Positions 1,706 through 18,172 are shown, counted from the stretch's first letter. The stretch: 52,290 nt of DNA from Chthonomonadaceae bacterium (GCA_035650735.1 DASRGZ010000188.1:1-52290); one strand, 5' to 3'. The notes: generated from the letters alone by a model not told the origin. Numbers and translations: made by a program.

Positions 1706-1754
1706 ATTGTACAATACGGCAGAATCCAAAACATCCGCTAAATGGCCGATTGTG
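1706..1754 (-). promoter_or_regulatory. Regulon box a plus -10 element
   Basis: Minus strand CACAATCGGCCATTTAGCGGATG (1754-1732); TACAAT starts at 1711, 39 nt from the ATC start. Confidence 0.75.
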
Positions 1755-1860
1755 AAAGCGACTACACAAGAAAATTGGTTGCCGTTAATAACCGAGGGAC
1801 GGTATCTGCGTTCGGAGCTTCGCCCGCCTGCGTGAATGAAATTATAATGGAATAGGTTTC

Positions 1861-1909
1861 CACAATCGGCCATTTAGCGGATGTCCCTTTTCTGCAAATC
1901 GCTTAAACT
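1861..1909 (+). promoter_or_regulatory. Regulon box b plus -10 element
   Basis: CACAATCGGCCATTTAGCGGATG 1861-1883, an exact inverted copy of box a; TAAACT at 1904, 39 nt from the ATC start. Confidence 0.75.
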
Positions 1910-1998
1910 TCATCGTGGTGAACTTCCGAAGAACGCACCTGGCAGTCATCGGTGAGCCAGACACAAAGCTTGAGGAGGAGAATCGTGGAGCGATCAGG

Positions 1999-3363
1999 AT
2001 GATACCTCTACCACAGCAACACAAACGCCTGCTCCCCCGTGGGTGGTGGCTCGCTCTCGGGCTGGCAGGAATCCCGGCTCCCACTGTGGGCTTAGCCTGG
2101 AGACAGTACCCCAAAACCTGGGAAGAAGCCGGCGTCTATTACGCGCAGACGACACCAGATAACCCCATAACCAGGCTGCAAGCCAAGATTGACGGCGGCA
2201 AACTCACGCTGGCTTACCAGAAAGGCCGGGGCTATCTGCCGGCGGTGCTCAAAGCCCTGCACATCCCCGTCTCTTCCCAGATGCTGGTCTTCTCCAAGAC
2301 CAGTGTGCATGGCGCCCTGATCTCCCCGCAAGCGCCCCGCGCCCTCTACTTCAACGATTCCACCTATATCGGCTGGGTGCCCCGCGCCCCGATCCTGGAG
2401 GTTGTCACCGTGGACCCCCAGCTAGGAGCCGTCTATTACGTTCTGCTCCAGCAGCCAAAGGCAAAACCGCGGTTTTTCCGCAATGTCGTAAGCTGCCTGG
2501 AGTGCCATGCCGGCCTGATCGCCAAGACGGTGCCGGGACACCTCCTGCGTTCGGTCTATGTGGATGCAGGCGGAACGCCGGAAAAGGAGGCGCCTAGTTA
2601 CCAGACCACCGATGCCAGCCCGCTTAGCGAGCGTTGGGGCGGCTGGTATGTGACGGGCAGGCACGGCAGCCAGAGACACATGGGCAACGCCTGCGCTACA
2701 CGCCAGGGCGACCAATTCGTGGTAGATAGGGAAAAGGGGGCCAATCTTACCGATCTTCATGGACTGGTGGATACGAGGCCGTACCTGAGCCGTTACAGCG
2801 ATATTGTGGCGTTAATGGTCCTGGGGCACCAGACGCACCTGCAAAACCTGATTGCCAAGGCGAATTACCAGACTCGCATGGCGCTCAGCCAGGACAGGGC
2901 ACAGGATAAAGCCTCTGGGCTTTCGGCAGACCCTCGCTCCAACACCGCTCCTGTGGACATCCAAACTGCCTGCGAACCGCTGCTGAAGGCCATGCTGTTT
3001 GTGGGAGAGGCACGGCTGACGGCCCCTATTACCGGCCTTTCCGGCTTTGCCGAGCAGTTCTCGGCGCAAGGCCCGCAGGATAGTAAGCACCGCTCGCTGC
3101 GCCAACTGGACCTCAAGCGCAGGCTCATGCGGTATCCGTGCAGCTACACCATCTACTCAGAAGCCTTCGATGCCCTGCCCGGCGTGGCTAAAGAGTATAT
3201 TTACCGTCGGCTCTGGGAGGTGCTCAGCGGCCAGGATCGCCGCCTGGAGTTTGCGCATTTATCGAGAGCCGACCGCAAAGCCATCCGGGAGATCCTGCTG
3301 GAGACGAAACCGGCTTTTGCTGCCTGGAAAGCCCGGCATTCAGCAGGACAGCAAGCGCAATAG
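1999..3363 (+). CDS. Exported monoheme c-type cytochrome of unknown function
   Basis: N-terminal hydrophobic segment, one CLECH, conserved-looking blocks SQMLVFSKTS, RWGGWYVTG and RYPCSY. Confidence 0.75.
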   Translation: MIPLPQQHKRLLPRGWWLALGLAGIPAPTVGLAWRQYPKTWEEAGVYYAQTTPDNPITRLQAKIDGGKLTLAYQKGRGYLPAVLKALHIPVSSQMLVFSKTSVHGALISPQAPRALYFNDSTYIGWVPRAPILEVVTVDPQLGAVYYVLLQQPKAKPRFFRNVVSCLECHAGLIAKTVPGHLLRSVYVDAGGTPEKEAPSYQTTDASPLSERWGGWYVTGRHGSQRHMGNACATRQGDQFVVDREKGANLTDLHGLVDTRPYLSRYSDIVALMVLGHQTHLQNLIAKANYQTRMALSQDRAQDKASGLSADPRSNTAPVDIQTACEPLLKAMLFVGEARLTAPITGLSGFAEQFSAQGPQDSKHRSLRQLDLKRRLMRYPCSYTIYSEAFDALPGVAKEYIYRRLWEVLSGQDRRLEFAHLSRADRKAIREILLETKPAFAAWKARHSAGQQAQ

Positions 3364-3415
3364 CACAGGCAGGATTCGCTATTGGATTCGCTAGCAGGTC
3401 AGCATCCGGTGAAAG

Positions 3416-3452
3416 CGAGATCAGGACGGCAAAGATTGCCGTCCTGATCTCG
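3416..3452. terminator. Hairpin between convergent genes
   Basis: 17-bp perfect stem CGAGATCAGGACGGCAA/TTGCCGTCCTGATCTCG. Confidence 0.6.
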
Positions 3453-3534
3453 TCGAGGAGAAAGAGCACGCCCTTGCTGCCGTTTCCACAGCCAGACGCC
3501 CTCGCCATTCCCCTACTCTGTTGATGGGGCTGGC

Positions 3535-3939
3535 TTACTTTTTGAGGCTGACCATGTAGGTTGCCAGGGCACGGAGATCCTTTCCCTTGATTTTGTCTCC
3601 GTAAGCGGGCATTTTTGCATCGGCCTTATGAGACTTCGGGTTCTTGATCTCAGCTTCAAACCAGGCCAGCGAGTGGGCGGGGTTAGCTCCCGTCTTGGTC
3701 AGGTCCGGTCCGCTCTTGCCTCCCTTGCCGTGAATCATGTGACAGTTGGCGCACTTGTTCGCCTCGTACACTTTCTTCCCCTCGGCGATCAGGGCCGCAC
3801 TGCCGCCAGCGCTCTTCTTGGTCGTGGGTTTGTGCTTGGTTTTTGGAGGGCTGGCAGAAACGGCTGTCAACAAAAGCGACCCATAGATGGTAAGTCCAGC
3901 CACCGCAAGCACGGCAGCTCTCTTTTTGCCAATGATCAC
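3535..3939 (-). CDS. Class I periplasmic cytochrome c (His/Met)
   Basis: Signal peptide, CANCH, GPDL, distal MPAY; AAAGGAG RBS and GTG start. Confidence 0.9.
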   Translation of the reverse strand: MIIGKKRAAVLAVAGLTIYGSLLLTAVSASPPKTKHKPTTKKSAGGSAALIAEGKKVYEANKCANCHMIHGKGGKSGPDLTKTGANPAHSLAWFEAEIKNPKSHKADAKMPAYGDKIKGKDLRALATYMVSLKK

Positions 3940-3992
3940 CTGTGTGCTCCTTTATCGTAAGAATTACTGCCTGGTAGGATAGAGAGAATCGG

Positions 3993-4793
3993 CTAGGACA
4001 CTCTCTTGCGCCGGTATTGGGGCAGCCGCCCTCCCTCCTCAGCATTGCGCCCATGAGCGTAAAGCGCTATCTGCGTGCGGCCTTCCAGGCGCAGCTTCTT
4101 AAGGATGCTGCTGACGTAGTTCTTGACCGTGGAATAGCCCAACTGCATCTCACTGGCGATCCGTTTGTTGGAGTAGCCCAGCCCGATCAATCTCACTACC
4201 TGACGCTCACGCAGCGTCAGGCTTTCCAAGCCGCCCTGCTGTGTTGTCGCTGAGGAATGCCTGGAGGACAGAAACGGCTCTGCCAGGCAGGGGGCAGAGG
4301 CAGGTTCTCTCCAGGGTTGGCTTGCATAAACGCGGCGTATTCCTTCGGCAATAGGGCCGAACCCCTGCGCTTTGCGCAGTATCCCATGCGCGCCAAGCGT
4401 AAGCCGGCACTGTAGGCAGTTCTCCACCGTGTCGTTGAGCATCCCTGTTTCGCAGAGCGCCTGCGCGCTGAGCGCCGCACACCCGACATGGTTACAATTG
4501 ACGGTCACCAGGATACGCGTTGCGGGACTGATAACAGTCAACTGGTTTAGAAGTTGTGATCGGGAATGTTCCGACAGCCCGCTATCGAGCAGAAGGACAT
4601 GCGGTCGGAGCCGACCGATGGCTGACAACGCCTCCTGGACCTGTCCCCATGCGCCGACACACTGGAATTCCGCGACCGTGTTAAGCAGCGCCACCATCCC
4701 CTCGCGCAGGAGCGTATCGGTCTCAATCAAGCCTACCTTGATCCGGTGCGTGTGGGACGGGCAACTCCCGATACTTGCTTGTGTGTAAGACAT
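3993..4793 (-). CDS. NarL/LuxR-family response regulator with a Cys-rich insertion in the receiver domain
   Basis: Receiver domain (LLLD) and LuxR HTH (LTLRERQVVRLIGLGYSNKRIA...STVKNYVSSILKKL); AGGAGG RBS before MSYTQ. Confidence 0.85.
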   Translation of the reverse strand: MSYTQASIGSCPSHTHRIKVGLIETDTLLREGMVALLNTVAEFQCVGAWGQVQEALSAIGRLRPHVLLLDSGLSEHSRSQLLNQLTVISPATRILVTVNCNHVGCAALSAQALCETGMLNDTVENCLQCRLTLGAHGILRKAQGFGPIAEGIRRVYASQPWREPASAPCLAEPFLSSRHSSATTQQGGLESLTLRERQVVRLIGLGYSNKRIASEMQLGYSTVKNYVSSILKKLRLEGRTQIALYAHGRNAEEGGRLPQYRRKRVS

Positions 4794-5075
4794 GGCTGCC
4801 CTCCTGACGATACGGTCTGGCAGATCAGCCTTATCTGTCCTCCTGCCGGACGGAGCGGAATTCATTTTCGGGAGTTCGCTACGCGCCGACCATGAAGGCT
4901 GCCAACTTGGCATCAATACCCGCTTCCATTCCTGCCTTTACAACTTACTGCTGCCTATCTACACTCTCGTACAACCCTACTCTACTAGATTTATTGAATC
5001 AAATTCATCCTCTAATTGACGGATTTTGCTCTGTTTCACCGGCGAATGCTGCCGTCCACAGTACTTTTTTCCTAA

Positions 5076-5104
5076 TTGACACCTCGCTTCGTGTGTATTA
5101 TGCT
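5076..5104 (+). promoter_or_regulatory. Sigma70-type promoter for the porin-cytochrome operon
   Basis: TTGACA-N17-TATGCT. Confidence 0.6.
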
Positions 5105-5260
5105 CAACGTTACAGTAACATAGGACCAACGCACCCTCTGTGAACGAGGATAACGCCTTACATAGGCTCGCAACGGTAGGCGCTTACTATCCAATGCACA
5201 CTCTACGGACGAGGACAACGGGCCGAGGACATGCTTTATGCGACAGGCAGAGGAGGGGTT

Positions 5261-6340
5261 ATGAGACGAATGCGGGCCGGGCGTCTGGGGTTCCTGTCCC
5301 TATTTCCGGCTTTGCCGCTGCTCGGGCTGGTGGCGATGTGCTATGTTCTGCCTGCACCACCCAAAACCCAAAAGCTTCCCCCCTTTCCTCTCAGCCTGTT
5401 CGCCCAGGCCACCCCGGATGACTATGTGGATGAGAAATCATGCATACGGTGCCATGCAAAATCTCATAATACGTTCGTTCGGTCTCCGCACGCGCCTTTC
5501 GTCAACGATACGCGTGATCCGATAGATAAGCACGGATGCCAATCCTGTCATGGCCCGGGCCGTCCTCATATTGCCCATCTGAAAAATCGCGCCGAGCTGT
5601 ATAACTACGTGATCAGTTACACCAGGGCCACGCCCATACAGGGCGCCATGGCTTGCCTGCGGTGTCATGCCGATACGATGACCCTCGCGCACTGGCGTCG
5701 AACCGGCCACGCCCACGCCGATGTCGGCTGCAACGCCTGTCATCAGATTCACCAGGACTTGGAGGATACGGATAAATCTGCCCAACACTCCAAAGCCAGC
5801 ACCCAGTTTCCCAGAGCGCGCGTATTCGTGGCGGCGGCAGAACCGCGTAAGCTGCTCAAGGCCGATGAGGCCACTCTCTGCGGCCAATGCCATCCGCGAG
5901 AGGTCAACGAGTTCCGGCAGAACTTCCATCACCCGGTTCCGGAAGGGCGAATGGTCTGCAGCGACTGCCATGAGATCCATCCCCGCCACGAAACGGAAAG
6001 GCAGGAGGCGGCCCAACCGCGCTTCGGCCGCTCCCAGCTAGATCGAATCCACCTGCGGGGAGCGTCGGATATGTGCGTCACCTGCCATCCAGAGACCGCC
6101 GGGCCGTTCGTCTTCGAGCATGATCCGGTGACCGGGCTGTCTGGCGACGGGTGCCTGGAGTGCCACCGTCCGCACGGCTCACACAATCCCAGGCTGCTGA
6201 CCCTCTTCTCACGTGGGGCATGCAACCAATGTCATACCGATAAGGCCAACAACCACTTTCCGGGACGCACCTGCTGGCAGACCGGCTGCCATGTCGGTGT
6301 CCATGGGTCCAACACAGACCGGTTCCTGCTTCAACGCTAA
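5261..6340 (+). CDS. mtrA: DmsE/MtrA/PioA-family decaheme cytochrome c
   Basis: Nine CxxCH plus a terminal CWQTGCH (CX4CH) followed by HGSN; family blocks HHPVPEGRMVCSDCH and GPFVFEHDPV. Confidence 0.88.
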   Translation: MRRMRAGRLGFLSLFPALPLLGLVAMCYVLPAPPKTQKLPPFPLSLFAQATPDDYVDEKSCIRCHAKSHNTFVRSPHAPFVNDTRDPIDKHGCQSCHGPGRPHIAHLKNRAELYNYVISYTRATPIQGAMACLRCHADTMTLAHWRRTGHAHADVGCNACHQIHQDLEDTDKSAQHSKASTQFPRARVFVAAAEPRKLLKADEATLCGQCHPREVNEFRQNFHHPVPEGRMVCSDCHEIHPRHETERQEAAQPRFGRSQLDRIHLRGASDMCVTCHPETAGPFVFEHDPVTGLSGDGCLECHRPHGSHNPRLLTLFSRGACNQCHTDKANNHFPGRTCWQTGCHVGVHGSNTDRFLLQR

Positions 6341-6364
6341 GCGCGGCCCGGGAAGCCGCCGGAG

Positions 6365-8161
6365 ATGAAGACGCACATGCGATCTCTACTGGTCCTTCTC
6401 ATGATCATCGGGCTTGCGACGGCGGCGGGCGCCCAGGAACAGCCGGACGGAAAGGAAGGATCCAACGGTAAGACATCCGGCTCGCAACAGAAGCCTGCCG
6501 GCGAGCAGAAGCCGGCGGGAAACCAGGCGCCTGCCGGAAAAGGGCAGCCTCCCCAACAGCCAAAGCCCGCCAGGCCAGGAGAAGAGGAGGAGGAAGAGGT
6601 CCCGGAAGAGGAGGCCGCGAAGCCACCCCCCCGCGTGTTTCCCTGGCGCCTGGGATTAGGATGGGTGAACTGGTATCTGTCCGGCAACGAGACCAAATTT
6701 CGCCAGTATGCCACGCCGCCCCGAGGGTTTTTCCTGTATGATTGGCGTTACAATTCCCTGTCTATCGCGCATGGGAATTCCGGTTTTCTGGCGCTCAATG
6801 GCCCGGGGACAGACGACTACCGAGGCGACGCCGATCTGGCGTTCTTCTTCGGCAGAACACGCCTGGAGGGCTGGTTTACGCGCAACCGCTTCTTCGACCC
6901 GACGCCGACGTTGGTGCCCGAGAGTGGCCGCAACATACAGGATATCGCGCTGCGACAGTTCCTTATCCGGGACTTCTCCCTGGCGTTCCGCTTTCAGCAA
7001 AATAAGCAGAACCAGTTCTTTGAGGCGCCTCACATTCCACTGGATCAGCGCACGCGCTACATGGATGCCATCGCCGCCGGGCGGCTGGGCAACGGACAGT
7101 TGCGCCTGAGCTACGCGGACCGCGTTTTTACCGACTATACGGGCACCTATCCGGAGACCGACATCGGGCGCGTGCAACTGCGCTATCTCTGGCAGCCCAC
7201 GCTCAACTTCGGGCTGGAAGGCACCGTGGCCCATTTCGATATTCACCAGGCGGGCGCACCCAGAAGCCGCGCGGATGTGCTCTCGCTGGCCGGTTCCTGG
7301 GCGCTCGGCCCTTCCAGCGACCTGGCCTTCCTGCTGGAGCGGGATCGCATGAGCCTTCCCGTCGTGCAGAATGCCCAGATGCGCGAGCAGCGCCTCGCCA
7401 CGCTCCGGTTCGCCCAGCGCTGGCGGCGCTGGGCACTGCAACTGGGGCTGCAGGAACGGGAGGTCGAGCGGGTAAACGCCGATCAAACCTTTGTAGACGT
7501 GCCGCGATGGTTTACCTTTGATGGGCGTCTGTCGGGACGACTGAATCGGCAGTGGCGGCTGACCCTGCGCGGCTACACGGAGAACCTAAACCATGCGCTG
7601 ACGATGCTTACCCAGGACCCGCGCTCCCTCTACTGGGACAGCCGCGATTTTGTCCAGGCCAAGCTCGAGGGCGGCCTTCCTAACTTGAGCGGCTATATGA
7701 TCTGGTCCTACCGTCACTGGAGCAATGATGCCCGGTCATCCAGGGTGACCATGAACGCCTTCCTCGTGGGAGGCAACTGGCAGGTCTCGCCCAGAGGGAG
7801 TCTGTTCCTGGAGTACGGTACCGAAGCCTGGGGAGGACACACCGATATCCTGGAGTTTCCGACGCTGGGCAATTTCACGCCCAGCAACCGTACCTTTGCC
7901 GCCGGAGCGAGCTGGGCGATTGGCGCCAGTGGGACTCTAGCCCTTAACTTTACCGATTTCAGCACGCGCAACGACAACCCCCTGCTGCTGCGCGATGGCA
8001 ACACGCATGGGCAGTTCTTCACCCTCAGCGCCAGTTACCGGTTTCCGCGAGGCCAGGAACTGGGTATTACCATCTCTCCCTGGACTTATCAAGACCGCGT
8101 CGTAAGCACCATGGATTATGATGCAACAATCCTCATGTTGACGGCAAGCGCCCGCTTCTGA
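6365..8161 (+). CDS. mtrB: MtrB/PioB-like outer-membrane beta-barrel
   Basis: Signal peptide, KFRQYATPPRG N-terminal motif, amphipathic strands, C-terminal Phe (SARF); directly follows the decaheme gene. Confidence 0.75.
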   Translation: MKTHMRSLLVLLMIIGLATAAGAQEQPDGKEGSNGKTSGSQQKPAGEQKPAGNQAPAGKGQPPQQPKPARPGEEEEEEVPEEEAAKPPPRVFPWRLGLGWVNWYLSGNETKFRQYATPPRGFFLYDWRYNSLSIAHGNSGFLALNGPGTDDYRGDADLAFFFGRTRLEGWFTRNRFFDPTPTLVPESGRNIQDIALRQFLIRDFSLAFRFQQNKQNQFFEAPHIPLDQRTRYMDAIAAGRLGNGQLRLSYADRVFTDYTGTYPETDIGRVQLRYLWQPTLNFGLEGTVAHFDIHQAGAPRSRADVLSLAGSWALGPSSDLAFLLERDRMSLPVVQNAQMREQRLATLRFAQRWRRWALQLGLQEREVERVNADQTFVDVPRWFTFDGRLSGRLNRQWRLTLRGYTENLNHALTMLTQDPRSLYWDSRDFVQAKLEGGLPNLSGYMIWSYRHWSNDARSSRVTMNAFLVGGNWQVSPRGSLFLEYGTEAWGGHTDILEFPTLGNFTPSNRTFAAGASWAIGASGTLALNFTDFSTRNDNPLLLRDGNTHGQFFTLSASYRFPRGQELGITISPWTYQDRVVSTMDYDATILMLTASARF

Positions 8162-8267
8162 GAGGCAGAGCGGATAGGCTTTTGCATATATTCGATACGG
8201 CAAACGTCCTGCTCTTGGTACATAGCAGTTCCATCGGTGCGTTGCAGGCCGAAGGAGGGATCCGGGA

Positions 8268-9899
8268 ATGCATAGGAAATGGCTAATTGGGTGCTGGGTT
8301 GCGCTGATGGTGTTGACGGTGGCGCTGGGATTGCTGGCCGGCTGTGGAGGAGGCGGAGGCCCTAACATCCCGCCGAACCAGGCGGCCCCGACGCCTGTCT
8401 CTCCCTCGGCGGAATTCGTCGCGCTGGAGCCTGCCAGCCAGCGCACGGCAACTTACGTGGGCACCGCCAAGTGCGGCGGGTGCCACAGCGCCAACGCTGG
8501 CGCCCGCATCCAGCTTGCGGTCGCCAGGGCCAGGAGCGGCACGCGCCAAGCAGAGATCCCTAAGATTGACTTCGACGCATTCAGCCATACCATGCACGGC
8601 CAGAAAGGAGTGACGTGCGAACATTGTCATGGTCCCGGCAGCGCCCATGTGGCCTGGGCAACAAGCTTCCTTCAGAACCCGGCAGGGCACAGCCCGGACG
8701 AGGCGGACAACAATATCCTGACCTACCCCAACATCACGAGGCATGAAGTGTGCAACCAGTGCCATGGGCCCATCGTGGCGGACTTCCTCGTTTCTAAGCA
8801 TGCCCAGAAGGTCGATGTAGCGCTGGAAGAGTCTGTGCAAAACCCCTCATTCCTGGGACACTTCTGCTTGCGGTGTCACAGCGGAGCAACCCGTGCCGAG
8901 TTTATTGACTATCCGTTTAGCACTGCGACAGATATAACGACCGCCCAGAACACCGCAAACGCCGCCATCAACGCCTTCTCGGCTGCCGACGTGACGGAGC
9001 ATGCAGAGTCAACGGTCGAGACGGCGTCGTGTGGCAACTGCCACAACCCGCACAAGCTCACCGGCAAGTCGGTTCAGAAGGTGGCACAGAGTCCTAACGA
9101 CGTGCAACTTCATCGCAGGGCATTCAATCTGGACCCAACACCGGTCACACCCGGCGCTCCGCTCAAAGTGTATTCGAACTTCGACCAGGCATGCGGCTCC
9201 TGCCATAACGGGTTCGGAGCCAATCCTTCCGACGCGAACTTGAAAGCCAGCACGAGTCTGCCCATTATGCATGAAGGTCCTCAGTACAGCATGCTTATGG
9301 GCTACGGCGGCTTCGAGGGGGCCGGCAACGTGAGCTTCAGCCGGCAGTCGTCGCATGCGGTTCTCAATACCGCCCAGTGCGTCCAGTGTCACATGCCGGA
9401 CCATAACGGCTTTGCCAGCCACACGATGACCGTTATGGTGGACGTGAGCTGTGCGCCCTGCCACAGCACAGCCGACGCCAGCTCGCGGGCCACGGCTCTC
9501 AAGAACGACATCGAGAACGAGTTGTTCACCCTCCGCAGCCGCATGGCGAACTGGGCGCAGCAGACGCTCGGCAATTCGGCCTGGTGGGATTATACCAGAC
9601 TCATCTCCGAGAGCGGTGGGACGCCTCCGTCGGCAACTCAGGAGGCTTCGATCCCGCTGGGCATTCTTCGGGCGCGCCATAACTACTACTTCATCGTCCG
9701 CGATAATAGCTTCGGGATACACAACGCTCCCTACACCCGACTGCTGCTGGACGCGGCCAACAGGGAGCTTGACCCGCTGGTCGGCCGCCCGGATTCGCAG
9801 CAGGGCGGGGCATCCAGAGCGATCATCGAGAGCGTGCTGCGCCAGGATCGCGCTCGGAGCAAGCGGGCCGAGCGCTACTTCCGGCCCGGCGCGATCTAA
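8268..9899 (+). CDS. Octaheme c-type cytochrome lipoprotein with a c552/NrfA-like C-terminal helical region
   Basis: Lipobox LAGC; eight CxxCH; C-terminal ARHNYYFIVRDNSFGIHNAPYTRLLL. Confidence 0.85.
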   Translation: MHRKWLIGCWVALMVLTVALGLLAGCGGGGGPNIPPNQAAPTPVSPSAEFVALEPASQRTATYVGTAKCGGCHSANAGARIQLAVARARSGTRQAEIPKIDFDAFSHTMHGQKGVTCEHCHGPGSAHVAWATSFLQNPAGHSPDEADNNILTYPNITRHEVCNQCHGPIVADFLVSKHAQKVDVALEESVQNPSFLGHFCLRCHSGATRAEFIDYPFSTATDITTAQNTANAAINAFSAADVTEHAESTVETASCGNCHNPHKLTGKSVQKVAQSPNDVQLHRRAFNLDPTPVTPGAPLKVYSNFDQACGSCHNGFGANPSDANLKASTSLPIMHEGPQYSMLMGYGGFEGAGNVSFSRQSSHAVLNTAQCVQCHMPDHNGFASHTMTVMVDVSCAPCHSTADASSRATALKNDIENELFTLRSRMANWAQQTLGNSAWWDYTRLISESGGTPPSATQEASIPLGILRARHNYYFIVRDNSFGIHNAPYTRLLLDAANRELDPLVGRPDSQQGGASRAIIESVLRQDRARSKRAERYFRPGAI

Positions 9900-10217: not shown

Positions 10218-10266
10218 TAAAATCCGCCATTTCGGGGATGTACGCCGCCTTAAGGAACGCTATACT
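10218..10266 (+). promoter_or_regulatory. Regulon box c plus -10 element
   Basis: AAATCCGCCATTTCGGGGATG; TATACT at 10261, 39 nt from the ATC start. Confidence 0.75.
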
Positions 10267-10310: not shown

Positions 10311-10691
10311 ATGTATCCGCAGTGGATGCGTAAGATCGCACTCTCGTTGGCCCTGCTGTGGGCTTGCGGGTGGAGCTTCTTCGCGGTGGCTTCCTCTATC
10401 GGCGAAGGCTATACATGGCCGAAGCTGCTGCCCGGTATCCTGGCGGCGTTGGTGTTTGTAGGCAGCCTGCTTCTGGCCTGGCAATGGGAGCCTATCGGCG
10501 GCAGCCTGCTGATCCTGGAGGGGCTGCTGGTCTGTACCGCCTACGCGACCGGCTTTCTGCATGCCCGGTCCGCGAACACAATGTTCTTCGTACTCCTCCT
10601 GCTGGCTGCTCCAGCAATGGTATCGGGACTGTTGCTGTTGGGGAACTGGTGGAAGCGAACGCGGAGTCTAGTCCCTCTCTCCGGCATGTAG
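10311..10691 (+). CDS. Four-TM membrane protein, unknown function
   Basis: AAGGAGGT RBS; four hydrophobic segments. Confidence 0.75.
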   Translation: MYPQWMRKIALSLALLWACGWSFFAVASSIGEGYTWPKLLPGILAALVFVGSLLLAWQWEPIGGSLLILEGLLVCTAYATGFLHARSANTMFFVLLLLAAPAMVSGLLLLGNWWKRTRSLVPLSGM

Positions 10692-10732: not shown

Positions 10733-11242
10733 ATGGTTAAGCTCAATGGCGAGCGAACGACGCGCCTTCGTCCCATCGAGGGCGAGTACATCCGCTTTAA
10801 TCCGTTCGAGGAATTGACGGCTATGGAGCAGCGGATGGAGGATCTGTTTGGGCCTCGGTTCAAATCCGGCCCGCTGGAGTGGGCGATTCTGGATGAGCCG
10901 TACCCGTACGAGCCTGCGGTGGATATTATCCAGACCGAAGGCTATATCGAGATGTTTGTGGCGCTGCCGGGGTTCCCGATGGAGGCGATCCAGGTAGACG
11001 CCGCACCGGACACGATCACTATCGTAGGGGATCGCGAGCCCTTGTATCCGGAGGATGTGGTGGTGCATACCCAGGAGTGGGGTGTCACGCCAGTAAAGTT
11101 CCGGGCAAACTACATCCTGCCCACCGAGGTTGATCCGAGACATGTCAAGGCGACATTCCGTAACGGCGTGCTGCATCTCCAATTGCCGATCTCGGAGACG
11201 GCCCGGGTCAAGACGGTGCCTGTGAAGGTAGTTCCTGCATAG
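10733..11242 (+). CDS. Hsp20/alpha-crystallin small heat shock protein
   Basis: PAVDI...ALPG...F...LP..VD...VKATFRNGVLHLQLP; AAGGAGGT RBS. Confidence 0.92.
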   Translation: MVKLNGERTTRLRPIEGEYIRFNPFEELTAMEQRMEDLFGPRFKSGPLEWAILDEPYPYEPAVDIIQTEGYIEMFVALPGFPMEAIQVDAAPDTITIVGDREPLYPEDVVVHTQEWGVTPVKFRANYILPTEVDPRHVKATFRNGVLHLQLPISETARVKTVPVKVVPA

Positions 11243-11302
11243 CGTATTACCTGGAAGGCTGCTACCAGCGCAAGCACGCGAATCTTTAAAGTAGACACTA
11301 GC

Positions 11303-11351: not shown

Positions 11352-11440
11352 ACTCTAACGTGTGCGGCGGGCAGCCGCGCTGCTGTCTCCCCCGCCTTCT
11401 GTTTCAGCCTCGCTTCTCGATGAGCTCTCCGGCTATCCAT

Positions 11441-11652: not shown

Positions 11653-11702
11653 ACCCTATTCTATCGGCAGAGGTTGCTTTAAAAGGAAAGTAAGGTGGTC
11701 CC

Positions 11703-12134
11703 ATGTTTACGCACATCCTTGTTGGCTGCGATGGCTCCGGGCAGGCTATGAAGGCTGTCCGTATTGCCGCAGAGCTAGCCAGGCAGTTTGAGGCCCGGTT
11801 GATCGCGGTGAATGTCTACAATCCCTGGATGATAGCTCCTATCCAAGAAGAGCAACCCCTGGATATGGGCCTGGTAGCGCGCTATGTGGAGCAAGTACAG
11901 CAGGATATTGAAAAGCAGACCTGCTGTAAAGCCGCTGAACTCGGTGTAGAGTGCCGCTTTGTGCGCGCGTTAGGCCATCCTGTGGACAAGATCACGCAAG
12001 TTGCGGAGCGCGAGAAAGCAGATCTCATCGTGCTTGGCAGCCGGGGATTGGGAGTCTCCGAGGCAGCATTGCTGGGCAGCGTCTCCGATGGCGTGCTCCA
12101 TCACGCGCATTGTCCCGTGCTCATCGTGCGCTAA
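11703..12134 (+). CDS. Universal stress protein (single USP domain)
   Basis: ILVGCDGS...ADLIVLGSRG...LLGSVS..VLHHAHCPVLIVR. Confidence 0.95.
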   Translation: MFTHILVGCDGSGQAMKAVRIAAELARQFEARLIAVNVYNPWMIAPIQEEQPLDMGLVARYVEQVQQDIEKQTCCKAAELGVECRFVRALGHPVDKITQVAEREKADLIVLGSRGLGVSEAALLGSVSDGVLHHAHCPVLIVR

Positions 12135-12211
12135 GTACCGCAAGTGCACGACAAGGAAAAGTAAACGAGGGTGATGTTGGCGCCCAAGCAGAGAGGTAAA
12201 GGAGAGTTACA

Positions 12212-12907
12212 ATGGGTACAGGAAGAACGGAGCGGCCCCCGACCATGCGCTTACTGGCGGGCGTGACAGGCGGAGCCTTGATGCTGTATGGCTTCCAACA
12301 GAGCGCTTTCCGCGGGACAGTCCTGAGCGCCCTGGGGTTGGCCCTGCTTGCGCGCAGCCTGACCTGTTTCACGGCAAAAAGCCAGCCTCAGGCGTCTAAG
12401 AGGCATTCCTCAACTGAAATCCATGCGGACATCCTCGTTCAGGCTTCTGTCGAGCGTGTCTTTGGTTTCTGGACCAGCTTTGCAAACTATGCGCGCTTCC
12501 TTACGCATGTGCTGTCGGTCACCGATCTCGGCCACGGTCATCTGTGCTGGCAGGCTCTAAGCCCGAACGGCATGCCGGTGGAGTGGGAAGCCGTGATCAC
12601 CAAGTTTGTGCCCAAGCAGGAACTGGCCTGGATGAGCGTGCCCGGCGCGGTGGTGGAACAGATCGGGACGGTTCGCTTCCAGGCTCTTCCCGAAGGAGCA
12701 ACACGGGTGGATGTGCATCTGACATTCTCCTCGCGGCCAGGAGCGGCTGGACAGGGCAGGGGATTTTATGGGCCAGACACCAACAGGCAATTGGAGGCCG
12801 ACCTCCGACGAATGAAGGCGCTTATCGAGTCGAAGTTAATGCTGAAGAGTCTCGGGGCAGTCTCTACCGCATGGCGCGGGTTCGATCCGATATCTGCCAG
12901 GAGGTGA
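12212..12907 (+). CDS. SRPBCC (cyclase/dehydrase) family protein
   Basis: N-terminal hydrophobic hairpin, then VERVFGFWTSFANYARFL...VEWEAVIT...LAW...GTVRF...DLRRMKALIE. Confidence 0.85.
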   Translation: MGTGRTERPPTMRLLAGVTGGALMLYGFQQSAFRGTVLSALGLALLARSLTCFTAKSQPQASKRHSSTEIHADILVQASVERVFGFWTSFANYARFLTHVLSVTDLGHGHLCWQALSPNGMPVEWEAVITKFVPKQELAWMSVPGAVVEQIGTVRFQALPEGATRVDVHLTFSSRPGAAGQGRGFYGPDTNRQLEADLRRMKALIESKLMLKSLGAVSTAWRGFDPISARR

Positions 12908-12919
12908 TGCCATCGCGCT

Positions 12920-13025
12920 CCGGTTACAGATATGCGGAAATTACGCCGCTTTGAGGCTTGTGACACGCTGGCCCCTGTCACAGTAGGAGCCGGTTACAGA
13001 TATGCGGAAATTACGCCGCTTTGAG
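12920..13025. repeat. Two exact 36-bp direct repeats with a 34-bp spacer (orphan, CRISPR-like geometry)
   Basis: CCGGTTACAGATATGCGGAAATTACGCCGCTTTGAG at 12920-12955 and 12990-13025. Confidence 0.8.
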
Positions 13026-13111
13026 AGTTGAAAGACAACGATTCCGCCGGAAAGGGGAGGAGCTTTCGCAGGAGGAAGCGCCGGATAGGACGATGTGTTG
13101 GAGACATGACA

Positions 13112-13966
13112 ATGGATAAGCGGCTACTGCCTATCATCGTGTGTCCGGCATGTCAGGAGAAGCTGACCTTCTCCGGCGAAGAGTCCGACACGCGCCTGCT
13201 TTGCGGCCAACTACGTTGCGTTGGCTGCCGGCAGGCGTTTCCTGTGATAGAAGAGGTTCCTGACCTGGTGGTGCCTGGAGCCAATCTGGATGGCGCCTTT
13301 AAGCCGGAGCAGGCAGAGCAAGTGGCCGCATGGGGGTCCAGAAACTTCGCCGCCATGCAGCAGGGAAGCCTCTCACCCATGGAATGCGAATTTGTGGAGG
13401 CCGTTCGTGCCGTGGAGGGACCGGTGATAGACGTCGCCTCCGGGCCGGGCGGCTCCTATGGTGTTCCCGTGATGCAAGACGGCAGGACAGACCGCCTGCT
13501 GGTGATGAGCGATTTAGGCACACCTGTCATGCCCGCCTGGCGCAGATGCCTGCGTGCGGCGGGCTGGGGAGAGCGGTGCTCAACGCTGACCTTCGACGCG
13601 CGCTGCCTTCCGTTTCGGGATGCAAGCGTCATGGCGATTACCTCTGTAGGTGGCTTCGATAACATCCTGGATAACCACCGGGCATACGCAGAGGCGGCCC
13701 GCGTCTTACAGGCAGGCGGGCGCTTACTGGACATAGCAAGGTTCTACGAGCACGGAGGCCCCACCTATCGCTTTCTGGCAGAACAGAGACAGGCTGCGGC
13801 GAGTCGAACCGGCTATATCGCCTTGCTGGAGGGACTGGGTTTTGCCATAGAACGATGGGAAATCCCGAACTCTGGCTACGGCAAAACCGACCCTGCCGAT
13901 GGCCTGCCGTTGCGCGATGAAGAAGCCTGGGAGAATGTGGTTATCTTTGCCCGCTGCTCGGCGTGA
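13112..13966 (+). CDS. Trm112-like Zn-ribbon fused to a class I SAM-dependent methyltransferase
   Basis: IVCPAC...LRCVGCRQAFPVIEEVPDL; IDVASGPGG; DARCLPFRDAS; RVLQAGG. Alternative start 13106. Confidence 0.8.
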   Translation: MDKRLLPIIVCPACQEKLTFSGEESDTRLLCGQLRCVGCRQAFPVIEEVPDLVVPGANLDGAFKPEQAEQVAAWGSRNFAAMQQGSLSPMECEFVEAVRAVEGPVIDVASGPGGSYGVPVMQDGRTDRLLVMSDLGTPVMPAWRRCLRAAGWGERCSTLTFDARCLPFRDASVMAITSVGGFDNILDNHRAYAEAARVLQAGGRLLDIARFYEHGGPTYRFLAEQRQAAASRTGYIALLEGLGFAIERWEIPNSGYGKTDPADGLPLRDEEAWENVVIFARCSA

Positions 13967-13976
13967 GCACTCGCAC

Positions 13977-14025
13977 GACAATCCGCCATTTAGGGGATGT
14001 GTCTTGATGGCAAATCCATGATAAT
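13977..14025 (+). promoter_or_regulatory. Regulon box d plus -10 element
   Basis: GACAATCCGCCATTTAGGGGATG; GATAAT at 14020, 39 nt from the ATC start. Confidence 0.75.
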
Positions 14026-14069
14026 GGGGACGAAGCTACCCAAACGGAAAGGAGTTCCTCGCAATAGCC

Positions 14070-15176
14070 ATGAACAGAACGTCTCCCTATACGCAAGAAG
14101 ACTTCACGCACAGCCCCTTCGTGATGTTTTATGAGGTCACGCGGGCCTGCGATCTGCTCTGCAAGCACTGCCGGGCCTGCGCCCAGCCGAACCGTCATCC
14201 CTACGAGATGACGACGGAACAGTCCAAAACGCTCATCGCCCAGATCGCCGAGTTTCCCAAGCCGCCCGTGCTAGTGTTTACTGGCGGCGACCCGATGAAG
14301 CGGGAAGACATCTACGGGTTGGTGCGGCACGCCGTAGAGGTCGGCTTACAGGCAGCGATGACTCCGTCGGCTACACCGCTGGTGACCGCCGAGGCCGTCC
14401 GCAAGCTCCAGGAGGCCGGGCTAAGCCGGCTAGCGCTCAGCCTGGACGGCGTGGACGCGGAAACCCACGATGCCTTTCGCGGCGTACCCGGCAGCTTCGA
14501 GCGCACGCTGGAAATCCTGGCCGATGCCCGCGCCATTGGCCTTCCCCTCCAGATCAACACCACCATCACCCGCCGCAACGTGGACCAGGTGGATGCGATG
14601 GCGGAGCTGTTTGGGTCTCTGGGGATCGTGCTCTGGTCCGTCTTCTTCCTGATTCCGGTAGGGCGTGGGCTGGCCGAACAGCGGATCGCGCCGGAGCAGT
14701 ATGAGACGGTGTTCGAGCAGCTATGGAAGCAGGCGCAGAAGCAGCCCTACGGCATCAAGACGACCGAGGCGCATCACTATCGCCGGTTCGTCCTGCAGCG
14801 CCAGGGCAATCCGCAGTACCAGCCGGGGGCCTCCATTGCCGGACGCATTCAGCGCGCGCCCATCGGCGTCAACGACGGCAAGGGCGTGATGTTCGTCAGC
14901 CATACCGGGAGCATCTATCCCAGCGGGTTTCTGCCCATCAACTGCGGCAAATTTCCCGACGATTCGGTGGTGCGGATCTATCAGGAATCGGTCGTGTTCC
15001 GGGCGCTGCGCGATCCCGACCGGCTCAAGGGCAAGTGCGGCGACTGCGAGTTCCGGCGCATCTGCGGCGGCAGCCGAGCGCGGGCCTACGCCCTCACGCG
15101 GGACCCCCTGGCCGCCGAACCCGACTGCGTCTATGTGCCGCAGGCATGGAGGGAGAGGGAAGCATGCTTAGTGTGA
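14070..15176 (+). CDS. ahbD: Radical SAM/SPASM protein, AhbD-like (TIGR04053-type) heme synthase candidate
   Basis: CDLLCKHC; FTGGDP; C-terminal GKCGDCEFRRICGGSRARAY...EPDC; overlaps the ahbC-like gene. Confidence 0.7.
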   Translation: MNRTSPYTQEDFTHSPFVMFYEVTRACDLLCKHCRACAQPNRHPYEMTTEQSKTLIAQIAEFPKPPVLVFTGGDPMKREDIYGLVRHAVEVGLQAAMTPSATPLVTAEAVRKLQEAGLSRLALSLDGVDAETHDAFRGVPGSFERTLEILADARAIGLPLQINTTITRRNVDQVDAMAELFGSLGIVLWSVFFLIPVGRGLAEQRIAPEQYETVFEQLWKQAQKQPYGIKTTEAHHYRRFVLQRQGNPQYQPGASIAGRIQRAPIGVNDGKGVMFVSHTGSIYPSGFLPINCGKFPDDSVVRIYQESVVFRALRDPDRLKGKCGDCEFRRICGGSRARAYALTRDPLAAEPDCVYVPQAWREREACLV

Positions 15177-16369
15177 GCAACCTGCTCTGCGATCATCGGG
15201 CGGGCAACGAGGCACTCCGCTACGGACACGTGCGTGAGCGGCGGCAGGGGCGTGAGCCGGAAACCACGCCCGCCGATCCGTTTGACGGAGCGCCGCGCCC
15301 GGTGGTGGTCTGGGCCGTCACCAAAGCCTGCAACCTGCGCTGCGTCCACTGTTACGCCTCGGCCAGCCCGGAGGCAGCTTCCGGCGAGTTGACCCATCAA
15401 GAGGGCCTGGCGCTGCTGGAGGACCTGCGCGCGTTCAACGTGCCTGCCGTGCTCTTCAGCGGCGGGGAGCCGCTCGCCCGCCCGGATACGCCCGCGCTAA
15501 TTGCCTACGCGCAGTCGCTGGGCCTCTCCTGCACGCTCTCCACCAACGGCCTGCTGATTGACGAGGCGATGGCCGACCGCCTGGCTGCGCTCGGACTTAA
15601 GTACGCGGGCATCAGCGTGGACGGCATCCGGGCGCGGCACGATAAACTGCGGGGGCTGCAAGGCGCGTTCGAGGGCACGCTGGCTGCGATTGACCGCTGC
15701 CGCGCGCGGGGTATCAAGGTCGGCCTGCGCTTTACGGTCCACGCGCTTAATCAGACCGACCTTGACGCTATCTTCGATATCTGCCTGGAACACGACGTGC
15801 AGCGCCTCTGCGTCTATCATCTGGCTTACGCGGGGCGCGGGGGCAAGATGCAGAAGGTGGACCTGGCGGCGGAGCAGACGCGCGCCATCATGGATCGCAT
15901 TTTTGAGCGCACGCGCCGCTGCCATGCGGAAGGCTACGCGCTCGAAGTGCTCACGGTCGGCAATCACACGGACGCCGCCTATATCCTGTTGCAACTGGAA
16001 GAGAGCGACCCGAAGCGCGCGGCGGGGGTGGCGGCAAAACTCAAAGGCTCCGGCGGCAATCGCTCCGGCTGCAACATCGCCGCCATTGACCCGCTCGGCA
16101 ATGTCCACTACGACCAGTTTAGCTGGCACTATAATTGCGGTAATATCCGGGAGCGGCCCTTCAGCCAGATCTGGGCCGAAGCGGCGGACCCACGGCTTAA
16201 CATCTTGCGCGACCGTCGCGGGGCACTGCCGGCCCGCTGCCAGGCGTGCCGGTTTGTGGAGGTCTGCAACGGCAACCTGCGCACCCGAGCCGAGGCGGCC
16301 ACCGGCGACTGGCTTGGCCTGGATCCAAGCTGCTACCTCACAGAGGCCGAGAGAGCAGGGGATCTGTAG
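15164..16369 (+). CDS. ahbC: Radical SAM AhbC/NirJ1 (Fe-coproporphyrin III synthase-like)
   Basis: MLSVSNLL...LRYG...RPVVVW..TKACNLRCVHCYA; YHLAYAGRG; VGNHTD; CQAC...CNGNLRTRA...DPSCYL. Confidence 0.8.
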   Translation: MLSVSNLLCDHRAGNEALRYGHVRERRQGREPETTPADPFDGAPRPVVVWAVTKACNLRCVHCYASASPEAASGELTHQEGLALLEDLRAFNVPAVLFSGGEPLARPDTPALIAYAQSLGLSCTLSTNGLLIDEAMADRLAALGLKYAGISVDGIRARHDKLRGLQGAFEGTLAAIDRCRARGIKVGLRFTVHALNQTDLDAIFDICLEHDVQRLCVYHLAYAGRGGKMQKVDLAAEQTRAIMDRIFERTRRCHAEGYALEVLTVGNHTDAAYILLQLEESDPKRAAGVAAKLKGSGGNRSGCNIAAIDPLGNVHYDQFSWHYNCGNIRERPFSQIWAEAADPRLNILRDRRGALPARCQACRFVEVCNGNLRTRAEAATGDWLGLDPSCYLTEAERAGDL

Positions 16370-16381
16370 ACGACATTACCA

Positions 16382-16406
16382 GGCCCGCTCGCCTAGCGAG
16401 CGGGCC
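16382..16406. terminator. Hairpin between convergent genes
   Basis: GGCCCGCTCGC-CTA-GCGAGCGGGCC. Confidence 0.55.
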
Positions 16407-16453
16407 GGTGCAAGACGGAACGACTTCCTTCTTAACAAGCCCTGCATGGCTGC

Positions 16454-17338
16454 CTAGCGCACGACCAGCACCGAGCAGGGCGCATGACGCGCCACCCGCT
16501 GCGAGACGCTCCCCACCAGCAGCGACTTCCAACCGCTCAATCCCCGGCTGCCCAGCACGATCAGGTCGTAATTGCCTTCCGCAGCCACGCGCACAATCTC
16601 CTCCGCCGGATGGCCGTCTTCCTCACGAAAGGCATAGGGAATACCGGTCTGGCCCAAAATCCGTCCTGTGCGCTGCTTTACAGCCGCTTGCATACGCTCC
16701 CGGTAGGCCTTCAGTTCCGTGTCAGCGACCGGGACGCCCAGAAGACCCCGAGGAGGAGCAACCACGTGAAGGGCCGTCAATTCCGCGCCGAATTTGTCGG
16801 CCAGCAGCCCGGCCATTGCCGCCGCTCCCAGCGCGTTATCCGAGCCATCGGTAGCCAGCAGGATCCGATTGAAGCCGGTCGTCTCCTCCGATGCCTTCTC
16901 TCCCCGCACGATGAGCACCGGACAGGGGGCGTGCAGCAACACGCCCTCCGAGACGCTGCCTAATAAGAGCGCCTGCCAGGTGCTCAGGCCCCGGCTGCCC
17001 AGCACGATCAGATTGGCGTGTTCTCGCTCGGCCACCTGGGTAATCCGATCGACGGCATGTCCTATCTCCCGCAGGGCCTGACATGGCACGCCGGCCTGCT
17101 GGAAAATCGGCAGGGTACGGCATTCGACCTCTCCCTGCGTCTCCTCCGCCAAGCGAGCCAAGTCGCCTGGAACCGTGATCGATTCCCACGCTCCCAGATA
17201 GGCGGCGGTCAGCGTATCGTCAAAGACGCTAAGCAGCCGTATGTCGCTGTTGAATTGCCGGGCAATCGCGGCGGCCTTGTGAGCCGCCTTCAGCGCCCCC
17301 CGGGAGCCATCCGAGCAGACAAGAAGAGTCTGAAACAT
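16454..17338 (-). CDS. Tandem two-domain universal stress protein
   Basis: Two USP domains, each with DGS...LIVLGSRGL...GSVS...CPVL/CSVL; AGGAGG RBS before MFQTL. Confidence 0.95.
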   Translation of the reverse strand: MFQTLLVCSDGSRGALKAAHKAAAIARQFNSDIRLLSVFDDTLTAAYLGAWESITVPGDLARLAEETQGEVECRTLPIFQQAGVPCQALREIGHAVDRITQVAEREHANLIVLGSRGLSTWQALLLGSVSEGVLLHAPCPVLIVRGEKASEETTGFNRILLATDGSDNALGAAAMAGLLADKFGAELTALHVVAPPRGLLGVPVADTELKAYRERMQAAVKQRTGRILGQTGIPYAFREEDGHPAEEIVRVAAEGNYDLIVLGSRGLSGWKSLLVGSVSQRVARHAPCSVLVVR

Positions 17339-17376
17339 GGCCTGGTTCCTCCTATACTCTCTGCTTTCTGGTATCA

Positions 17377-17643
17377 TCACCATTGGACAAGAAGAGTCGC
17401 GTCCGCATCCTCCCTGATGCCCAAGACCGTCGCCGACCTCCGGCTCCAGGAAAATGCCACCCGCTCGTAGAGGGCCACACGGCCATTGAGGCTGGCCGGC
17501 AGATAGTCAGCTTGCTCCAGGCGAACCTCACGCTCGGTGCCTAGCTGCCGATACCGGCCCGGCTCAACCCTCTGCCCCCCCAGCAACAACATTCCGGTCC
17601 AGGGCTGGCTTTGGCTCCTGACTTGCTCTTGTCCCTTACTCAT
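17377..17643 (-). CDS. Small hypothetical protein
   Basis: AGGAG RBS; in line with flanking genes; core GQRVEPGRYRQL...LPASLNGRVALY. Confidence 0.6.
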   Translation of the reverse strand: MSKGQEQVRSQSQPWTGMLLLGGQRVEPGRYRQLGTEREVRLEQADYLPASLNGRVALYERVAFSWSRRSATVLGIREDADATLLVQW

Positions 17644-17689
17644 GGTTCTGGTCTCCTGTCCTTGAGTTAGCTACTTGGCCGCCTTTCAC

Positions 17690-17998
17690 TCAATCTTGGC
17701 CCTGTGCCCCAGGACGCAGGGTGGACGCAATTTCTTCGAGCTTGTTGGCTGGGCGACCCTCGCCGGAAGGCCATTCCGTCAGAGACATGCCGGAAAGCGC
17801 TATGAGGTGTTGGTGGGCACAGTACGGGCAGAAGTGACGTCCTCCTCCCTGGCTCAGAACAAACAGCCAGCCTTCTACTGCCTGCCCGGCACTCTGCCCT
17901 GATAGGAGGCGGGAGCGCAGGGCGACGGGAATAGCCGCCGTGGCGGTGCATCCCGGTCCATCGCAGGCTATCTTTTTGCCGTCCTGTCGTAAGCTCAT
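17690..17998 (-). CDS. Small putative Zn/Fe-binding protein
   Basis: GGAGG RBS; CDGPGC...GW...HFCPYC; first gene after box e. Confidence 0.65.
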   Translation of the reverse strand: MSLRQDGKKIACDGPGCTATAAIPVALRSRLLSGQSAGQAVEGWLFVLSQGGGRHFCPYCAHQHLIALSGMSLTEWPSGEGRPANKLEEIASTLRPGAQGQD

Positions 17999-18033
17999 CG
18001 GCCTCCCGAGCCTCCTTTTCAGATTGCTGTGCT

Positions 18034-18082
18034 ATTATAAGCCGCTTCTCAAAGGATAGCATCCCCGAAATGGCGGATTGTG
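18034..18082 (-). promoter_or_regulatory. Regulon box e plus -10 element
   Basis: Minus strand CACAATCCGCCATTTCGGGGATG (18082-18060); perfect TATAAT starts at 18039, 39 nt from the ATC start. Confidence 0.8.
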
Positions 18083-18122
18083 ATGGCGAAAAATGCAAAC
18101 GGCGGCGCGGCGCTTTCCCGCT

Positions 18123-18172
18123 CACAATCCGCCATTTAGAGGATGTTTCCCGTGCGGCTCCCCCGCCATAAT
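18123..18172 (+). promoter_or_regulatory. Regulon box f plus -10 element
   Basis: CACAATCCGCCATTTAGAGGATG; CATAAT at 18167, 40 nt from the ATC start. Confidence 0.75.

Follow-up and report, generated by a model that had tools for sequence, protein, structure and literature searches.

A palindromic box phased to -10 hexamers as the probable operator of a NarL-type response regulator in Armatimonadota

Several intergenic regions in a 52,290-nt stretch of DNA from a Chthonomonadaceae bacterium (GCA_035650735.1, DASRGZ010000188.1:1-52290; the whole stretch is hereafter the window) carry the same short palindromic box ahead of a -10 hexamer, which raises the question of which protein reads this box and which genes it controls. 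The window is contig C188 of a 6.52-Mb assembly with 63% G+C (genome G000), and it encodes two candidate readers, the NarL-type response regulator RR2 at 25761-26444(-) and the atypical regulator RR1 at 3993-4793(-). Our analysis indicates that the box probably binds a dimer of RR2, which would activate promoters with a -10 hexamer but no -35 consensus. In its core this agrees with a sequence-only reading of the same DNA, which had proposed a regulon defined by an operator that overlaps the -35 position of -10-only promoters and serves a dimeric activator of the NarL/LuxR type; the support comes from conservation over 100 sites across the phylum, from co-occurrence and adjacency with one NarL-type regulator, and from covariation of protein and DNA.

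All six operator copies listed in the sequence-only reading are exact matches to AATCSGCCATTTMGVGGATG, at the places and on the strands claimed, the spans it gave being the box plus three upstream nucleotides, usually CAC. A pattern scan of the window added a seventh copy at 5006-5025(-) with two mismatches to AATCSGCCATTTMGVGGATG, so that the total exceeds the six listed, with seven in the window and 13 or more genome-wide. Over 100 dinucleotide-preserving shuffles of the window, 0.00 matches were expected by chance vs. the seven observed. Each of the seven boxes lies between genes and points toward the downstream gene, as had been claimed, with open reading frames (ORFs) that have family support on either side. 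The -10 hexamers were likewise found where they had been placed; counted from the first A of AATC, they begin 40 nt on, in one case 41 nt. Box 1 (1732-1751(-); AATCGGCCATTTAGCGGATG; 35.6 bits) and box 2 (1864-1883(+); 35.6 bits) stand back-to-back, with the hexamers TACAAT at 1711-1706(-) and TAAACT at 1904-1909, respectively, and the same arrangement joins box 5 (18060-18079(-); 35.6 bits; TATAAT at 18039-18034(-)) and box 6 (18126-18145(+); 36.5 bits; CATAAT at 18167-18172, one base later). Box 3 (10221-10240(+); 36.7 bits) precedes TATACT at 10261-10266 and box 4 (13980-13999(+); 35.5 bits) precedes GATAAT at 14020-14025, while box 7, the seventh copy (AATCCGTCAATTAGAGGATG) and with 30.5 bits the weakest of the seven, is followed at 41 nt by the -10-like hexamer TAGAGT at 4984-4979(-).

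For the anatomy of the box we pooled 100 sites, 14 from G000 (at most two mismatches) and 86 from 80 loci of other genomes. Their informative core reads A-A-T-C-C-G-C-C-R-T-T-T-N-G-S-G-G-A-T-G, with an additional A two bases upstream of the core in 73% of the sites. With the first A of the core as base 0, bases 1-18 form an 18-bp palindrome, ATCCGCCA-TT-TNGSGGAT, flanked by A and G; the promoter-distal half of the palindrome hardly varies, the proximal half more so. Conservation is absent from bases 20-39, which carry no information, and bases 40-45 read tAnaAT (A41 in 72%, A44 in 71%, and T45 in 72% of the sites). These sites have no conserved -35 hexamer, which bears out the claim that TTGACA is missing, and no extended -10 TG at 37-38. 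A second tandem box above 8 bits at offsets -19 to -23 or +19 to +23 was present at none of 99 sites; the only partner boxes are back-to-back, at -38, -56/-57, or -66, and serve divergent promoters, and the pairs 1732/1864 and 18060/18126 in the window are of this type.

The two flanking bases, A at 0 and G at 19, show conservation without being complementary to each other. T-G at 18-19 coincides with bases 2-3 of a -35 hexamer at a 17-bp spacer, so that the asymmetric ATG at the 3' end of the box would occupy positions 1-3 of such a hexamer; this overlap with putative -35 bases may account for the fixed direction of the box. If transcription is assumed to start 7 nt past the -10 hexamer, the dyad would lie at about -42.5 (-43.5 or -44.5 where the -10 begins 1-2 nt later), and the bound dimer would contact RNA polymerase in the manner of a class II activator, a geometry that we infer from the position of the -10 hexamer. 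A search for public RNA runs over 16400-19500, from which starts might be mapped, listed none.

To count the sites in the complete assembly, we used a weight matrix trained on 84 sites, all from other genomes, with the reversed matrix as control. The scan of G000 resulted in 13 strong sites of 28.6-37.0 bits, seven in the window and six elsewhere, below which came three at 23.1, 22.1, and 19.7 bits and all others at no more than 17.7 bits; the reversed-matrix control reached a maximum of 17.3 bits, under every strong site. A strict TAnnnT hexamer began at base 40-41 at 9 of the 13 strong sites, and either TAnnnT or [C/G]ATAAT began at base 40-42 at 12 of them. The motif scan of the genome and its relatives that the sequence-only reading had proposed as a check found both the box and its -10 phasing to recur, at 12 of 13 strong sites in G000 and over the 100 pooled sites.

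The first of the two candidate regulators, RR2, consists of a canonical receiver and a GerE/LuxR helix-turn-helix with the recognition helix ESTVKTHVEHILGKL. It scores 100.7 bits with the Response_reg model (cut-off 30.2) and 75.1 bits with GerE (cut-off 23.5), which makes it a NarL/FixJ-type protein, and the receiver motifs DD, LLD, LTT, and LLK are present in its sequence. RR1 combines a degenerate receiver with a LuxR helix-turn-helix (helix YSTVKNYVSSIL); it passes the GerE cut-off, its receiver scores 20.8 bits, under the cut-off of 30.2, and has IETD where the acidic pair is expected, together with Cys-rich stretches. In the RR1 family (L033, L035-L040), the cysteine motifs C-x4-C and DDCLQ occur in 5 of 7 aligned relatives and are not found in the G010 and G015 orthologs, and RR1 might sense redox directly. 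Both proteins had been put forward as candidates from the sequence; our results favor RR2 and make RR1 a target and not the favored binder.

The distribution of the box among genomes largely follows that of RR2. Relatives of RR2 in named public records are Armatimonadota (Chthonomonadaceae, Capsulimonadaceae, Abditibacteriaceae, and Armatimonas), the next being Chloroflexi at ~44% identity. The strict box pattern was present in 9 of the 41 nearest genomes, with up to 21 copies per genome and none for the reversed pattern. When two mismatches were permitted, counts were 39 in G010, 32 in G019, 18 in G001, 14 in G000, 12 in G007, 11 each in G002 and G038, 10 each in G008 and G015, and 9 each in G009, G020, and G040, with controls of 0-3. 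RR2 orthologs (65-81% identity) were identified in 19 of 40 neighbor genomes, and 14 of the 41 nearest genomes combine an RR2 ortholog of at least 68% identity with at least five boxes. Two RR2-like genes were observed in some genomes (G020, G049, G064, and G166).

We then drew an even sample of 151 genomes from the phylum, each at least 85% complete, with E<=1e-70 as the ortholog threshold and at most one mismatch for the box. Seventeen of these genomes had a box (the reversed pattern gave one hit in all) and 19 had an RR2 ortholog; at least one box was found in 13 of the 19 RR2-holding genomes vs. 4 of the 132 others, with one hit each. All nine genomes with three or more boxes held an RR2 ortholog.

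Additionally, box and regulator gene are often neighbors. Among 67 RR2 loci (at least 65% identity, with 350 nt or more of DNA beyond the gene; box with at most three mismatches), 35 have a box on the same strand within 400 nt past the RR2 stop codon. The genes behind 22 such boxes encode universal stress proteins (USPs; nine), ScdA/hemerythrin proteins (three), DoxX (two), proteins of no family (two), and one each of a Zn-alcohol dehydrogenase, a P-type ATPase, a BON protein, a 2-hydroxyacid dehydrogenase, a cation efflux protein, and a cupin.

The box also changes along with the protein. The common recognition helix of RR2 orthologs is (A/S)ESTVKTHVEHI, and a variant, SENT(I/V)KTHVVHI(I), occurs at four loci (L081, L109, L113, and L114), three of them labeled Abditibacterium. 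Boxes at the variant loci read AATC(G/A)(C/T)(C/T)C..TTGGGTGATG and are phased to -10-like hexamers. At the 58 loci with KTHVEH, the promoter-proximal half-site was ATCC[GC]CN in 50 cases, ATC[AG]C[CT]C in none, and another sequence in 30; at the four loci with KTHVVH, the corresponding numbers were 0, 8, and 2.

The RR2 gene overlaps the stop codon of a histidine kinase gene at 26441-28261(-), whose product is a soluble protein with a PAS domain, a DevS/DosT-type GAF domain (residues 230-370), HisKA_3, and HATPase; Pfam places one PAS (72-187) and one GAF (229-365) ahead of HisKA_3. The GAF matches the heme GAF-A of DevS and DosT at E 7e-36 and ~50% identity, a feature overlooked in the sequence-only account of the regulators, and no second kinase with a DevS-type GAF was found in the G000 genome at E<=1e-5. 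FPPNHPPM in the kinase aligns with FPPYHPPM, and the Tyr of SLYLT with that of TLYLT, LYLT being kept; the aligned residues are the equivalents of DosS His149 and Tyr171 (chain numbering: five tag residues, then residue 63). In the part of PMC4082495 that concerns these residues, DosS His149 is the proximal heme ligand and Tyr171 is a distal residue that discriminates between ligands. The kinase is predicted to bind heme and, by analogy with DosS/DosT, low O2 or NO/CO would lead it to phosphorylate RR2 and so switch the regulon on. The kinase adjoins RR2 in 54 of the 73 loci with room upstream, and metagenome-assembled genomes labeled Capsulimonas and Abditibacterium are among the carriers of the pair. 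Seven RR2-like loci that have no adjacent DevS-type kinase (L057, L076, L087, L095, L097, L101, and L126) appear to be orphan paralogs.

How does this system compare with those already described? The NarL/NarP sites of Escherichia coli are 7-2-7 arrangements of inverted TACYYMT heptamers. NarL is the best solved relative of RR2 (8e-43), their helices are alike (ESTVKTHVEH in RR2 vs. ESTVKVHVKH), and both kinds of site have inverted C-rich halves around a 2-bp center, with 4 of 7 heptamer positions agreeing in register. Unlike the heptamer, the Armatimonadota half-site has one extra outer base, and it departs from the heptamer at 3 of 7 positions; the kinase is a soluble PAS-GAF protein rather than a periplasmic nitrate sensor such as NarX or NarQ (the NarQ and NarX models score 63 and 49 bits on it vs. 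cut-offs of 553 and 578); and the regulon is of a stress/hypoxia type. Class II activators of the CRP/FNR kind have their site at -41.5. Our promoters share with such sigma-70 promoters a site that overlaps -35, a strict -10 phasing, and the lack of a -35 consensus, and differ from them in the predicted dyad of -42.5/-43.5 (start site assumed) and in having a LuxR-type response regulator rather than a CRP/FNR protein.

[quoted passage not shown] According to the sections of PMC3177182 on the Dev box, the palindrome spans 18-20 bp and its half-site, numbered over 20 bp, is G4G5G6A7C8T9; numbered over 18 bp, the essential bases are G5 and C7, and position 9 is A/T, and the same sections call two or more tandem boxes the hallmark of all DevR promoters. 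PMC2275270, where it gives the consensus, has the palindrome TTSGGGACTWWAGTCCCSAA with the half-site GGGACT. Shared between the two systems are the heme-type GAF-A of the kinase with its His149/Tyr171 equivalents, the HisKA_3 core, a NarL-family regulator, and an 18-bp site with a dyad, the distal half of the Armatimonadota box having G5 (94%), C7 (97%), and T9. Additionally, the regulons share USPs, an alpha-crystallin-type Hsp20, a P-type ATPase, and respiratory/redox genes; six of the ten USPs of M. tuberculosis belong to the DosR regulon, as stated in a passage of PMC2914252. In contrast, the Armatimonadota half-site is ATCCGCC and not (G)GGACT, with CC where the Dev box has GG, so that only G5, C7, and W9 coincide; there is one box per promoter, with no tandem partner at any of the 99 sites, vs. 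the tandem boxes of DevR; and the host belongs to another phylum. The earlier claim that the box differs from the DosR box and from the E. coli NarL heptamer holds for the sequence, although in length, dyad, and G5/C7 the box has some likeness to the Dev box. Judged from sequence, the system would resemble DosRS read through a NarL-like helix, failing three DosRS features, namely the box sequence, the tandem boxes, and the GAF-GAF sensor.

A number of observations weigh against an RR2-read box under a DosRS-like sensor. In G000 itself RR2 is not beside a box: the synteny of RR2 and box seen elsewhere is not present, a scan of the contig at 12 bits or more gave only the seven boxes and none ahead of the kinase-RR2 pair, and the nearest box is ~7.6 kb off. 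Its closest solved relative is NarL and not DevR (1e-35; VraR comes between them at ~1e-40), and the sensor has a PAS and one GAF instead of GAF-GAF. Six of the 19 ortholog holders in the phylum sample (G003, G018, G051, G082, G121, and G174) have no box at up to one mismatch, and among the nearest genomes G006, G033, G034, and G039, with orthologs of 66-67% identity, have only 0-2 boxes at two mismatches. The reverse is found in G009 (nine two-mismatch hits; 70% complete) and G025 (seven hits; 97% complete, control 1), which have no ortholog. Related genomes are kin, and the counts overstate their independence; the covariation of helix and half-site is probably a single event in one lineage. 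Finally, the strong site at C17:49490(-) has no -10 hexamer, the single exception among the 13.

Could another protein read the box? One proposal is that RR1 binds it, autoregulates through box 7, and controls the regulon, the pair at 25761-28261 doing something else. Boxes stand ahead of RR1 and also upstream of its orthologs in G015 (C26:4139) and G010 (C715:3890), and RR1 has DevR as its best PDB match (2.8e-18) and a helix, STVKNYVS, that is most like that of DevR, YSTVKNYVSSIL being invariant in eight orthologs. We nevertheless rejected RR1 on the phyletic pattern and consider this proposal very improbable. RR1 orthologs (43-47% identity) are found in G010, G015, G030, G031, G036, G037, G038, and G040, with a 37% relative in G003, and those genomes that have RR1 without an RR2 ortholog (G030, G031, G036, and G037) contain 0-3 boxes. 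Conversely, box-rich genomes with RR2 have no full-length RR1 at E<=1e-10, examples being G008 (10 boxes, 95% complete), G020 (9 boxes, 98%), and G007 (12 boxes, 95%), the RR1 match in the last being a helix-turn-helix fragment only, while G001 (18 boxes) and G019 (32 boxes) have RR1 relatives of only 29-36% identity. The low score of the RR1 box is as expected of a target. An unlikely alternative, to which we give somewhat more weight, is that some other factor of the same lineages binds the box, for example a CRP/FNR-type or redox regulator, and that the link to RR2 reflects shared ancestry and neighborhood. A position overlapping -35 is the classical place of FNR/CRP-type activators, and among kin a phyletic correlation does not point to any single gene, the more so with six ortholog holders that lack boxes. 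However, the FNR consensus is TTGAT-N4-ATCAA and the box has no half-sites of this kind; moreover, the box closely follows the RR2 gene in 35 of 67 loci and its half-site changes along with the RR2 recognition helix. It is because of the phyletic pattern, the adjacency, the covariation, and the few boxes in RR1-only genomes that, of the two LuxR-type regulators compared, we take RR2 as the probable binder.

The mode of action has its own alternatives. Were the box a repressor site, RR2 or another protein would block RNA polymerase at -35 and its release would switch the genes on. Sites overlapping the -35 region are typical of repressors too, and at C17:49490 a strong box has no -10 behind it; on the other hand, promoters with no -35 consensus and no extended -10 TG should be weak unaided, and the strict 40-42-nt phasing over 100 sites suggests a polymerase contact on one face of the helix rather than mere occlusion. 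The relative NarL activates from comparable positions. The same is described for DevR in PMC3177182. We regard repression as a slim prospect. That the box is part of an alternative-sigma promoter or a small dispersed repeat, and not a regulator site, is hardly credible. Its fixed direction and fixed distance to the -10 would fit such an element, but the 18-bp two-fold symmetry fits a dimer rather than a sigma -35 element, the -10 hexamer belongs to the housekeeping TATAAT class, the unconserved flanks speak against a mobile repeat, and different genes stand behind the box in different families of the phylum. Activation by an RR2 dimer remains our preferred account.

Turning to the targets, box 1 is followed on the minus strand by a secreted Cys-rich protein of no family and without CXXCH (867-1619(-)) and by a protein with one CXXCH and a DUF2231 membrane domain (1-756(-)), while a protein with one CXXCH and no family match (1915/2011-3363(+)) stands behind box 2. 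Behind box 3 are a DUF7670 membrane protein (10311-10691(+)) and Hsp20 (10733-11242(+)). A single-domain USP gene at 11703-12134(+), 460 nt past hsp20, has no box of its own, and read-through from box 3 or some other regulation may apply to it. Box 4 precedes two radical SAM proteins, the first with SPASM and AhbD-like (14070-15176(+)), the second NirJ1/AhbC-like, with its end at 16369(+); this pair falls under the AhbD and AhbC cut-offs, the first member passing TIGR04053. The genes behind box 5 encode a four-Cys protein of 102 amino acids (17690-17998(-)), an 88-amino acid protein (17377-17643(-)), and a tandem USP (16454-17383(-)). Box 7 stands ahead of RR1, whose start codon was set by its ribosome-binding site to the ATG at 4793, 232 nt past the box, and of a cytochrome c (3535-3939(-)).

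Behind box 6 are a 4Fe-4S dicluster protein (18306-18953(+)) and a Rieske protein (18950-19444(+)). Its drive may extend past the Rieske gene to a TehA/SLAC1-type channel (19696-20790(+)), a QmoC-like membrane protein (20799-21842(+)), an alginate-export-type porin (21887-23200(+)), and a NasC/Fdh-like Mo enzyme that falls under both the NasC and Fdh-alpha cut-offs (23472-25703(+)); the gene set has gaps of ~250-270 nt. The genes from 18306 to 25703(+) form an unusual combination. The targets that the sequence-only reading had named do lie behind the boxes, but some of the names were loose, as the protein at 867-1619, called a cytochrome, has no CXXCH and the radical-SAM pair scores under the AhbD and AhbC cut-offs. 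Also in the window, a cluster at 5231-9899(+) resembles a porin-cytochrome conduit, with a DmsE-family decaheme-type cytochrome (5231-6340(+)), a 598-amino acid protein that lacks Cys, has a signal peptide, ends in Phe, and matches no family, possibly an outer-membrane barrel (6365-8161(+)), and a 543-amino acid multiheme cytochrome (8268-9899(+)); no box is directed at this cluster.

For the six strong sites outside the window we examined the ORFs downstream of the box. The genes behind them encode a hemerythrin-domain protein (C206:26428(-)); a 217-amino acid protein, a Zn-alcohol dehydrogenase, an acetyl-CoA hydrolase/GNAT protein, and a P-type ATPase (C5:8497(-)); a DUF1269 protein, with an Nramp transporter gene farther downstream (C132:17948(+)); cytochrome bd subunits I and II (C213:7657(-)); a xylose-isomerase-like TIM-barrel protein and others (C64:15820(+)); and a 153-amino acid alcohol-dehydrogenase fragment (C17:49490(-)). 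Three boxes occur within 3.3 kb on C17 (46283-49509), at 49490(-) with 35.6 bits, at 48569(+) with 17.4 bits and TAAACT, and at 46283(-) with 19.7 bits, and the Zn-alcohol dehydrogenase fragment beside them may be a decayed copy of the C5 operon. On C5, weaker boxes at 2731-2750(-) and 9251-9270(-) (23.1 and 22.1 bits) lie on either side of the operon of the strong box, and the former has TATACT at the standard distance. The regulon is predicted to comprise USPs, Hsp20, cytochrome bd, the hemerythrin-domain protein, oxygen-independent radical-SAM heme-type enzymes, and small cytochromes, and, additionally, the Fe-S/Rieske (possibly Mo-enzyme) module, the Zn-alcohol dehydrogenase/acetyl-CoA/P-type ATPase operon, and a second atypical LuxR regulator.

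In the literature searched, we found no regulon or operator described for Armatimonadota and no paper linking DosR to Armatimonadetes. Evenly balanced in our judgment is the wider proposal that the Armatimonadota, known from aerobic isolates, have wired a DosS-type heme gas sensor to a NarL-like regulator with its own 18-bp code, which would activate single-box promoters of a dormancy/low-oxygen program including oxygen-independent heme-type radical-SAM enzymes and respiratory modules, and that the change of E to V in the helix, together with that of ATCCGCC to ATCACCC in the half-site in the Abditibacterium lineage, would supply a recognition rule for the regulator family. The box offers a complete and testable regulon, with sensor, regulator, operator, promoter architecture, and ~13 targets, and could be used for annotating hypoxia-responsive genes in hundreds of metagenome-assembled genomes. 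The covariation of helix and half-site offers, on a small scale, a natural experiment in DNA recognition by NarL-family proteins. If the proposal is true, soil Armatimonadota have an oxygen/NO-responsive persistence program like the mycobacterial one, in which a heme sensor of the DevS type works with another DNA code and with promoters of a simpler, one-box design.

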